DNA of 4,742 bases from a virus (Duplodnaviria; Heunggongvirae; Uroviricota; Caudoviricetes). The stretch lies in the IMG/VR virus record IMGVR_UViG_2740892258_000009, one strand, 5' to 3'. The position numbers and the translations under genes are program-made. Shown here one piece after another: positions 3,342 to 4,742 of this stretch (positions are counted from its first letter, which is position 1; the number at the start of each line of letters is the position of its first letter). Under the pieces are notes generated by a model. That model saw only the letters and a program-made list of their open reading frames with translations, was not told the origin of the DNA and ran no database searches.

Positions 3342-3605
3342 ATGTCATCTCAAAACTACACAGAGAAAGCAGTAAAAGCTGCGGGAAAATCTTTATCTGA
3401 AGTAGCCCGTCACTTTGGTTTTAAGTCCACTCAATCCGTCGCTAATTGGGTAATTAACAATCAAGTCCCGTCAGAACGGGTTTTACAACTTTGTGAGTTG
3501 GGAAACTGGTCCGTGACCCCTCATGAACTGCGTCCTGATATTTACCCCAATCCAAATGATGGATTACCTGAGTGCTATTCAAAAGTTAGCGGTTCAGCTG
3601 CGTAA
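3342..3605 (+). CDS. Cro-like / YdaS-type small HTH regulator, 87 aa
   Basis: Track ORF 3342..3605, divergent from the repressor, with a GGAG SD. LSEVARHFGFKSTQSVANWV..VPSERVLQLCELGNWSVTPHELRPDIYPNP resembles the YdaS/Cro HTH pattern (..RPDLYP) that I recall from Rac-type prophages. Confidence 0.85.
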   Translation: MSSQNYTEKAVKAAGKSLSEVARHFGFKSTQSVANWVINNQVPSERVLQLCELGNWSVTPHELRPDIYPNPNDGLPECYSKVSGSAA

Positions 3606-3633
3606 ACGTAACCACAGAAACGAGGAGTTAACC

Positions 3634-3983
3634 GTGGGTAAGCATCACTGGAAAATAGAAAAACAGCCTGAGTGGTACGTGAAAGCTGTCAGAAAAACTA
3701 TCGCAGCGTTGCCGGGGGGTTACGCTGAAGCTGCTGACTGGCTGGACGTAACAGAGAACGCATTATTTAACCGCCTTCGTGCCGATGGCGATCAGATTTT
3801 CCCGCTGGGATGGGCAATGGTTTTACAGCGTGCTGGTGGTACCTCTCAATTTCGAAGCTGCAGGAGCATGCAGCACTGGTCTACAAAATCTTTTGTGTTT
3901 CAGAAAGTAATGACGCCCGCGAGTGTGCAGCTCCGGGCGTCGTGGCGTCGATTGCTTCTGGTTGTGGAGAAACTAACGCATGA
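3634..3983 (+). pseudogene. cII-like phage regulatory protein disrupted by a reading-frame switch near 3840-3845
   Basis: GAGGAG (3622-3627) lies 6 nt before GTG 3634. Frame 1 is protein-like through VGKHHWKIEKQPEWYVKAVRKTIAALPGGYAEAADWLDVTENALFNRLRADGDQIFPLGWAMVLQRAGGT, then becomes a Trp/Arg/Cys-rich tail ending at 4032. From 3843, frame 3 reads LSISKLQEHAALVYKIFCVSESNDARECAAPGVVASIASGCGETNA* and ends in an ATGA overlap (3980-3983) with the start of the next gene. Confidence 0.6.
3832..3839 (+). other. Chi octamer GCTGGTGG
   Basis: Exact match to 5'-GCTGGTGG-3', immediately 5' of the frame-switch point in the cII-like gene. One such octamer in a window of this size is not statistically remarkable. 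Confidence 0.9.
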
Positions 3984-4074
3984 ACAGTTTAACAACACAC
4001 TACCGTCGCTCGCAACTGTGTGGAGAAACTAACGCATGAACAGTTTAACAACACACTACCGTCGCTCGCAACTG
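3963..4074 (+). repeat. Perfect tandem duplication, 2 x 56 bp
   Basis: 3963-4018 is identical to 4019-4074 (TGTGGAGAAACTAACGCATGAACAGTTTAACAACACACTACCGTCGCTCGCAACTG). The unit contains the last 7 codons of the cII-like gene, an SD (GGAG) and the first 13 codons of the next gene. Confidence 0.95.
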
Positions 4075-4374
4075 ATTGCGCTTCCTGTACCGGGTGGAAA
4101 AGCGAAGGTGGAGTATTGCTATGCAGTAAATGTACCAGGTGACAGGGAAATTGTAACCCACAGCTTTGCTGAGTGGGCTGTGGGTGATTTCAACCGGCAG
4201 AAGGAGACAGTCCTTTGCGACAAGTTAACCGCTGGTTCAAAGATCACTACGGAGTGCCCGTCAGAGTCATTCGTTGGGAACCGGAAACACAACGTGTTAT
4301 CTACCTCCGCGAAGGCTATGAGCATGAGTGCTTCAGCCCGCTCGAACAGTTTCGTCGTAAATTCAGGGAAATAG
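4036..4374 (+). CDS. Hypothetical protein; the 3' third is probably an out-of-frame over-run
   Basis: Track ORF 4036..4374, with GGAG 9 nt upstream of the ATG. The N-terminal ~60 residues are protein-like ([52 protein letters not shown]..). The tail is low-complexity Ser/Ala-rich (..[24 protein letters not shown]) and overlaps a better-looking frame-3 gene by 160 nt. Confidence 0.4.
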
Positions 4375-4394
4375 AGGTCGGTCATGAGCACTAA
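4215..4394 (+). CDS. Small protein (59 aa, TTG start) with a DUF4222-like pattern; absent from the ORF track
   Basis: Frame 3 is open from 4188 to TAA 4392-4394. AAGGAG (4201-4206) lies 8 nt before TTG 4215. The translation is (M)[58 protein letters not shown]. The D-x2-G-x-P-V-x-V..RV-x-[FY]-x-R-x-GY-x3-C-x2-P-x3-F pattern matches my recollection of DUF4222 proteins found next to lambdoid replication genes. The 3' end overlaps the next ATG by 11 nt. Confidence 0.6.
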
Positions 4395-4742
4395 ATTAAC
4401 CGGCTATGTATGGGATGGTTGCGCTGCATCAGGCATGAAATTATCCAGCGTGGCAATTATGGCCCGCCTGGCTGATTTCAGTAATGACGAAGGTGTGTGC
4501 TGGCCATCAATTGAAACCATTGCCCGCCAGATTGGCGCGGGGATGAGTACCGTCAGAACGGCTATCGCACGGCTGGAAGCAGAAGGCTGGTTAACGCGTA
4601 AGGCGCGTCGCCAGGGTAACCGCAATGCGTCGAATGTTTATCAGCTTAACGTTGCGAAGCTTCAGGCAGCGGCATTTTCTCAACTGTCAGATTCTGACCC
4701 GTCAAAATCTGACGCATCAAAATCTGACGCATCAAAATCTGA
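4384..4742 (+). CDS. Replication initiator (lambda O-like role), N-terminal winged-helix DNA-binding domain; 3' end outside the window
   Basis: GAGG lies 6 nt before ATG 4384 and frame 1 is open to the window end. The translation is [104 protein letters not shown]. The HTH/winged-helix pattern and the position after the cro and cII-like genes fit a phage O-type initiator. Confidence 0.85.
   Translation, partial: MSTKLTGYVWDGCAASGMKLSSVAIMARLADFSNDEGVCWPSIETIARQIGAGMSTVRTAIARLEAEGWLTRKARRQGNRNASNVYQLNVAKLQAAAFSQLSDSDPSKSDASKSDASKS
4687..4742 (+). repeat. 15-bp tandem repeats (iteron-like) inside the initiator gene, running off the window
   Basis: TCAAAATCTGACGCA occurs at 4702-4716 and 4717-4731, with a partial copy from 4732. 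A degenerate copy, TCAGATTCTGACCCG, lies at 4687-4701 (11/15). In frame they encode SKSDA pentapeptide repeats. Confidence 0.85.

Follow-up and report, generated by a model that had tools for sequence, protein, structure and literature searches.

The frame switch in a deposited prophage ymfL gene is best explained as an assembler mis-join

The frame switch that interrupts the regulatory gene ymfL in a draft Escherichia coli prophage contig is, in our judgement, an assembler mis-join rather than a mutation in the phage, and we would put the probability of this reading at about 0.93. All breakpoints in the deposited sequence, and both ends of the contig, fall on k = 57 unitig boundaries that are set by the differences between two near-identical prophage copies, and for this reason we favour a mis-join over a deletion. 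The window, by which we mean the whole stretch of DNA that was analysed, is the entire draft contig CVOH01000015.1 of assembly GCA_001245225.1 (4,742 bp); we found no mention of this assembly accession in the literature. An earlier note on the same DNA, made from the letters alone, had named an assembly error as something to be excluded. On the k = 57 coordinate matches it turns out to be the explanation, though not in the form of a small indel.

The contig derives from an E. coli lambdoid prophage, of which it covers the immunity and early-right region (Table 1). An S24 repressor gene on the minus strand is followed on the plus strand by a YdaS-like gene, ymfL, ymfM, a DUF4222 gene and an HTH_36 replication gene, and with the exception of ymfL every one of these is intact within the window. 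The YdaS-like Cro product has 87 aa. The longest ORF of the repressor encodes 253 aa, a protein recorded in exactly this form for many genomes; the start chosen by PGAP in APEC O18 lies 19 codons later and gives 234 aa. The stretch from the repressor to the left end of the contig holds two further genes, neither with an obvious role in a lambdoid immunity region. One (381-899) encodes a product whose N-terminal half resembles a coiled coil and which has two CxxC pairs, and the other (1284-2360) encodes a ParA-family ATPase (AAA_31 / CbiA) that is an orphan, no parB lying in view as its partner. Among the best 30 matching complete E. coli chromosomes, which include APEC O18, IHE3034 and PMV-1, the prophage region is present at 99.4-99.8% identity, and the gene 3' of the cro-like gene is annotated there as ymfL, with a product of 185 aa. 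The evidence points to a common prophage type of ST95-type E. coli.

Table 1. Features of the 4,742-nt window (L001, coordinates of the APEC O18 reference prophage)
Feature	Position	Strand
Hypothetical gene, 172 codons	381-899	+
ParA-like ATPase	1284-2360	-
cI/LexA-like prophage repressor (HTH_3 + Peptidase_S24)	2531-3292	-
YdaS-family HTH gene in the cro position, opens the early-right operon	3342-3605	+
GAGGAG ribosome-binding site of ymfL, 6 nt 5' of GTG 3634	3622-3627	+
ymfL 5' part, codons 1-69, frame 1; end of assembly block A	3634-3839	+
Chi octamer GCTGGTGG, native to intact ymfL alleles	3832-3839	+
Probable false join; 208 nt of ymfL (L001 4041-4248, codons 71-139) absent	3839-3840	.
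Block B = X-specific k = 57 unitig L001 4249-4427; ymfL codons 140-185 (frame 3, 3843-3983) and first 56-mer copy	3840-4018	+
First 56-nt copy	3963-4018	.
Second 56-nt copy; start of shared unitig (L001 4372 onward)	4019-4074	.
ymfM, SfiC cell-division inhibitor homologue, intact	4036-4374	+
DUF4222 gene, in another frame, overlaps the 3' half of the ymfM ORF	4215-4394	+
HTH_36 replication-initiator-like gene, 5' part, intact up to the contig end	4384-4742	+

The near-identical APEC O18 prophage (NZ_CP006830.1), called copy X below, serves as the reference for the window, and its coordinates are prefixed L001. The start of ymfL had seemed convincing in the earlier note on account of its ribosome-binding site, and it is the same start that PGAP assigns to ymfL in APEC O18. 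Frame 1 had been read as protein-like for about 70 codons and frame 3 as protein-like from 3843. Both observations hold, since the first stretch equals YmfL residues 1-70 exactly (3634-3843) and the second equals residues 140-185, ending at TGA 3981-3983; the frame-1 ORF itself stays open over 3634-4032. Alignment to APEC O18 reveals a clean 208-nt gap after 3839 (L001 4041-4248) that removes codons 71-139 and shifts the frame, and the window is 100% identical to APEC O18 over 1-3839 and 3839-4018. The preference of the earlier note for an internal out-of-frame deletion over a 1-nt indel agrees with this 208-bp gap in the deposited sequence relative to APEC O18. Its statement that intact members of the family are substantially longer is likewise supported, as these have 183-185 aa and all large protein clusters are of that length.

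The gap and one other lesion are the only structural differences from APEC O18. The second, which the earlier note missed, is a perfect 56-bp tandem duplication (3963-4018 / 4019-4074) that spans the ymfL stop and the ymfM start. Its two copies are 100% identical and form the only repeat of at least 25 nt in the contig, and there is no flanking microhomology (3962 and 4018 differ, as do 4019 and 4075). This duplication alters how the end of ymfL is to be read. The ATGA overlap with the next gene, previously taken as the mark of the true 3' end, is present at 3980-3983, but it lies inside the first 56-bp copy, so that its ATG leads into a stub of no more than 19 codons; ymfM in its full length is read from the second-copy ATG at 4036.

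The origin of both lesions can be read from the relationship between two prophage copies. Carriers of copy X, the prophage of this contig (APEC O18, IHE3034, MS20655, N44, N54, N66 and others), also hold a copy Y, a UTI89/e14-type ymfL region (ymfK-ymfT-ymfL-DUF4222-replication) that is 100% identical to that of UTI89. We simulated a de Bruijn graph from the two APEC O18 copies and determined its unitigs at odd values of k from 21 to 127. At k = 57, one X-specific unitig spans L001 3844-4040, where 4040 corresponds to window position 3839, the left edge of the gap. A second X-specific unitig, L001 4249-4427, is exactly window 3840-4018, and a shared unitig (L001 4372-4465) starts at the first base of the repeated 56-mer; L001 3985-4085 and 4243-4304 are shared nodes as well. 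The contig begins at L001 202, which is a unitig start (146) plus 56, and ends at L001 5095, which is a unitig end (5151) minus 56. The same spacing recurs at the internal breakpoints, with 3839 lying 56 nt after the X/Y SNP at 3783, 3840 lying 56 nt before the X/Y SNP at 3896, and the last divergent base, 3962, preceding 4018 by 56 nt; the repeated block is likewise 56 nt long, or k-1. Only k = 57 places all six coordinates (contig ends, deletion edges and duplication edges) on unitig boundaries, and every other k listed places at most three of the six there, those being independent of k. The chance that the three internal coordinates would all fall on unitig boundaries is approximately 1.5e-6 for the 616-nt stretch concerned.

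The contig amounts to three graph pieces butted together, with two-copy nodes skipped and a k-1 overlap left untrimmed. When L001 202-4040, 4249-4427 and 4372-5095 are placed end to end, the result is 4,742 nt long and departs from the window at three bases (4113, 4128 and 4601). All three carry Y alleles, as expected from merged X/Y bubbles, and they are the sole base differences from copy X outside the junctions; in its downstream part the contig is thus a mosaic of X and Y. Two lambdoid prophages whose ymfL-ymfM-DUF4222-replication modules are nearly identical are most likely present in the source strain, and we infer that one of them is copy Y from the closest genomes, from contig ends that lie at X/Y differences and from the three Y-type bases. 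In a k = 57 de Bruijn graph, unitigs specific to one copy would have alternated with unitigs shared by X and Y. The output would then have come as three pieces, written in succession without proper overlap handling, the first ending at the X-specific unitig that runs to L001 4040, the second consisting of unitig 4249-4427, and the third opening with the shared unitig that begins at L001 4372. The apparent 208-bp deletion and frame shift would result from skipping the two-copy nodes that separate the first piece from the second, and the apparent perfect tandem duplication from keeping the 56-nt (k-1) overlap between the second and third. A k = 57 assembler, together with a scaffolding or gap-closing step, was presumably responsible.

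With the de Bruijn contig-join artefacts of short-read assemblies of multi-prophage E. coli, such as untrimmed k-1 overlaps and skipped nodes of collapsed repeats, the contig shares a perfect tandem repeat of even length (56 = 57 - 1) that has no microhomology, breakpoints located k-1 from paralogue variants, ends at paralogue variants and mosaic X/Y alleles. Prophage loci are a documented source of misplacement and misassembly in Illumina-based E. coli assemblies (PMC4134206). The simple model alone does not explain why only these two junctions were mishandled, given that approximately 20 other unitig boundaries in the contig were correctly merged. Orphan fragments of the skipped nodes, predicted to encode YmfL residues 51-156 or 66-154, were absent from the protein collection.

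The alternative that survives best, although we regard it as very improbable, is that the rearrangement is real. The phage would then have suffered a 208-bp out-of-frame deletion in ymfL and a 56-bp duplication, for example when a RecBCD-processed 3' end at Chi entered a single complex event of repair or template switching, leaving a cII-null prophage that keeps YmfM and the replication genes. What recommends this reading is that the left breakpoint falls on the last base of a correctly oriented Chi, that two lesions occur within 180 bp in DNA otherwise identical to its relatives, and that, with the duplication in place, the TAA ending the frame-shifted ORF (4030-4032) is separated by 3 nt from the ymfM ATG at 4036, such that stop/start coupling would be kept. 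However, there is no biological reason for breakpoints and contig ends to lie exactly 56 nt from paralogue-distinguishing bases, an arrangement that only k = 57 fits. Neither junction was found elsewhere: 50-base probes centred on 3839/3840 and 4018/4019 had no counterpart in 5,426 complete E. coli genomes, and the exact junction 32-mers were absent from GTDB species representatives, IMG/VR and JGI metagenomes. Microhomology amounts to at most 1 nt at the deletion junction and is lacking at the duplication junction, the frame effect of the duplication has a prior of 1 in 3, and the truncation points of YmfL proteins in the database are not clustered at Chi.

A more elaborate form of this alternative, which we consider less probable still, gives both lesions a joint origin. 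A RecBCD-resected 3' end would have stopped at the ymfL Chi, primed 208 nt downstream and slipped back 56 nt, with the duplication restoring a stop/start arrangement before the SfiC-type ymfM. Another candidate was a compensatory role for the duplication, as a suppressor that brings back the coupling of ymfL' to ymfM. It suits the reading frames, but an untrimmed k-1 overlap predicts both the length and the position of the duplication, and this candidate was rejected. If the lesion were true, it would represent a single strain-specific cII-null prophage of modest interest.

The position of Chi deserves separate comment. The earlier note correctly located an exact Chi octamer directly 5' of the junction (3832-3839), and it is the sole Chi in the window, against a chance expectation of 0.14. 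The suggested link between the two does not hold, as the octamer is native to intact ymfL and the paralogue SNP at 3783 explains where the breakpoint falls. Chi abuts the junction because this nearest upstream SNP happens to lie 56 nt from 3839, and the adjacency is coincidental. A Chi/RecBCD-mediated deletion was rejected on the further grounds that the octamer occurs in every intact allele examined (X, Y and 1008S13) and that the points at which YmfL variants in the protein database are truncated or fused range over residues 58-175 and show no clear peak at residue 70. The proposed TACC microhomology fares no better. The nearest intact allele reads GCTGGTGG/CACT upstream and GAGCTG/TACC downstream, with at most one G shared. 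A TACC/GTAC version was also set aside, as the sequence of strain 1008S13, GGTGGTAC, would give 4 nt but the closest allele is GGTGGCAC, and block B begins with the T at 3840.

The original proposal, that ymfL is a true cII-like pseudogene in a defective or lysogeny-locked prophage, is in our view scarcely credible. The deposited sequence does indeed lack an intact ymfL. However, the lesion is best explained as an artefact, and the repressor, the cro-like gene, ymfM, the DUF4222 gene and the replication gene are intact. The term 'lysogeny-locked' would be inappropriate even if cII had truly been lost, to judge from phage 186, in which CII activates the leftward establishment promoter and is required for lysogenisation (PMC8538670). 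Lysogens of cII-minus 186 still yield phage and are used as a phage source, whereas it is the establishment of lysogeny that fails (PMC8538670). Since CII is needed to establish lysogeny in phage 186, its loss predicts a clear-plaque, poorly lysogenising phage rather than a locked one.

A further reading, in which the short product of frame 1 is a real and conserved variant of the gene or the site is one of programmed frameshifting, has in its favour the open ORF at 3634-4032 and nothing further, and can be dismissed with near certainty, because the called short product (P0001, start 3559) is a one-member cluster among approximately 15 billion proteins in the homology search, its tail is an out-of-frame reading of the ymfL 3' end, and intact homologues have 183-185 aa. 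These full-length forms populate clusters of 161 to 1,862 members. Exact protein look-ups for the frame-1 product, whether begun at GTG 3634 or at ATG 3523, gave no match, and the conserved homologues of the same short length that the earlier note thought might overturn its proposal were not found.

The same homology search returned dozens of one-member clusters (within P0002-P0104) in which the YmfL N-terminus is joined to other sequence. The partners include out-of-frame tails as well as RusA, PerC, antiterminator Q, LexA-like and DUF4222 domains, and most of these singletons come from draft or Logan assemblies. Many of the fusion and truncation singletons may reflect the same kind of mis-join across multi-copy lambdoid modules rather than real fusions.

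On the mis-join reading, the real ymfL would be an intact gene of approximately 185 codons that belongs to the phage 186 CII family. The intact APEC O18 allele, which is identical to the window gene in the retained parts, can stand in for it. The assignment to a cII-like family made in the earlier note is borne out by this homologue, which scores 51.6 bits (cutoff 26) with Pfam PF06892, the family of phage 186 CII, and covers positions 5-141 of the 146 in the profile; the corresponding scores are 48.9 bits for K-12 YmfL and 163.6 bits for 186 CII. It also scores 169.9 bits against the 90-bit cutoff of the NCBIfam equivalog NF041471 (YmfL family putative regulatory protein) and matches PHROG 101, 'CII-like transcriptional activator'. 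The first 70 aa encoded in the window reach 66.1 bits with NF041471, which is under the cutoff because the piece is truncated. Neither this frame-1 piece nor the frame-3 piece matches any Pfam family, an outcome that we attribute to the 208-nt gap and so to misassembly. There is no match of intact YmfL to lambda CII (Phage_CII), and a Pfam scan at E <= 1 gives PF06892 alone. Thus, ymfL appears to be 'cII-like' in the phage 186 sense and not in the lambda sense, a putative label that draws on the profile match and on gene position, with ymfL directly after the gene in the cro/apl position and before the replication genes. We found no experiment on activation of an establishment promoter by YmfL and no solved YmfL structure.

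Three known systems help to place the gene. Phage 186 CII (CP76) is the founder of PF06892 and so falls in the same Pfam family as intact YmfL, although pairwise BLASTP finds no similarity between the two proteins. Both cII of 186 and ymfL lie just after the gene in the cro/apl position and form part of the early lytic transcript. Positions 1936-2680 of phage 186 (L004) and 3634-4374 of the window have the same order, with the cell-division inhibitor gene fil directly after cII in the former, and in the latter, directly after ymfL, the gene ymfM, which has been described as an SfiC cell-division inhibitor (bioRxiv 10.1101/2020.11.19.390815). There is no detectable sequence similarity between YmfM and Fil. 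Over-expression of YmfL gave no division phenotype (bioRxiv 10.1101/2020.11.19.390815).

The closest comparison is with the e14 prophage of K-12 (gene order ymfK-ymfT-ymfL-ymfM), whose YmfL (b1147) has 185 aa and is 98-99% identical at the protein level to the parts retained in the window. As in e14, ymfL begins with GTG, overlaps ymfM through ATGA and follows the cro-like gene, and the window YmfM is 96% identical to that of K-12. The contig as deposited departs from e14 in the absence of codons 71-139 and in the 56-nt repeat where ymfL meets ymfM. It also has different immunity genes, namely the 253-aa S24 repressor, the 87-aa YdaS-like Cro and an adjacent ParA-like gene. Among temperate phages, SfII and SfIV of Shigella, PhiR29 of Escherichia and others are 96.6-97.3% identical over the region from ymfL to the replication genes, and in SfII the gene is annotated cII / YmfL. 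These SfII-type functional phages align to the window in three pieces, as do the complete E. coli genomes, which is the pattern expected if they possess the 208 nt and lack the 56-nt repeat.

Some observations on the downstream genes can be recorded here. Across the ymfM/DUF4222 overlap (4215-4374), compared in six sequences, six of the seven variable sites fall at third positions of the DUF4222 frame, where they are synonymous, and change amino acids in ymfM. In the part of ymfM that lies 5' of the overlap, all three variable sites are third positions of ymfM. There are four differences from K-12 YmfM, all in the C-terminal half, and a 63-aa PHROG family matches YmfM residues 1-63 only. Taken together, these patterns suggest that the constrained portion of the SfiC inhibitor may be just the first ~60 residues. 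In the non-K-12 genomes examined, PGAP annotates the DUF4222 gene and not ymfM. Further downstream, the end of the contig (4687-4742) contains 15-nt tandem repeats within the HTH_36 gene that encode D-x-S-K-S units. The number of repeats varies among copy X, copy Y and strain 1008S13, and the contig stops at the first X/Y difference within them.

For the biology of this prophage, the lesion itself appears to be unimportant, and the evidence points to an ordinary intact ymfL. Its wider meaning is as a warning that pseudogene calls in short draft contigs from genomes with multiple prophages can be pure assembly artefacts. Such artefacts carry a recognisable signature, namely a perfect tandem repeat of even length, k-1, that adjoins a seeming deletion.
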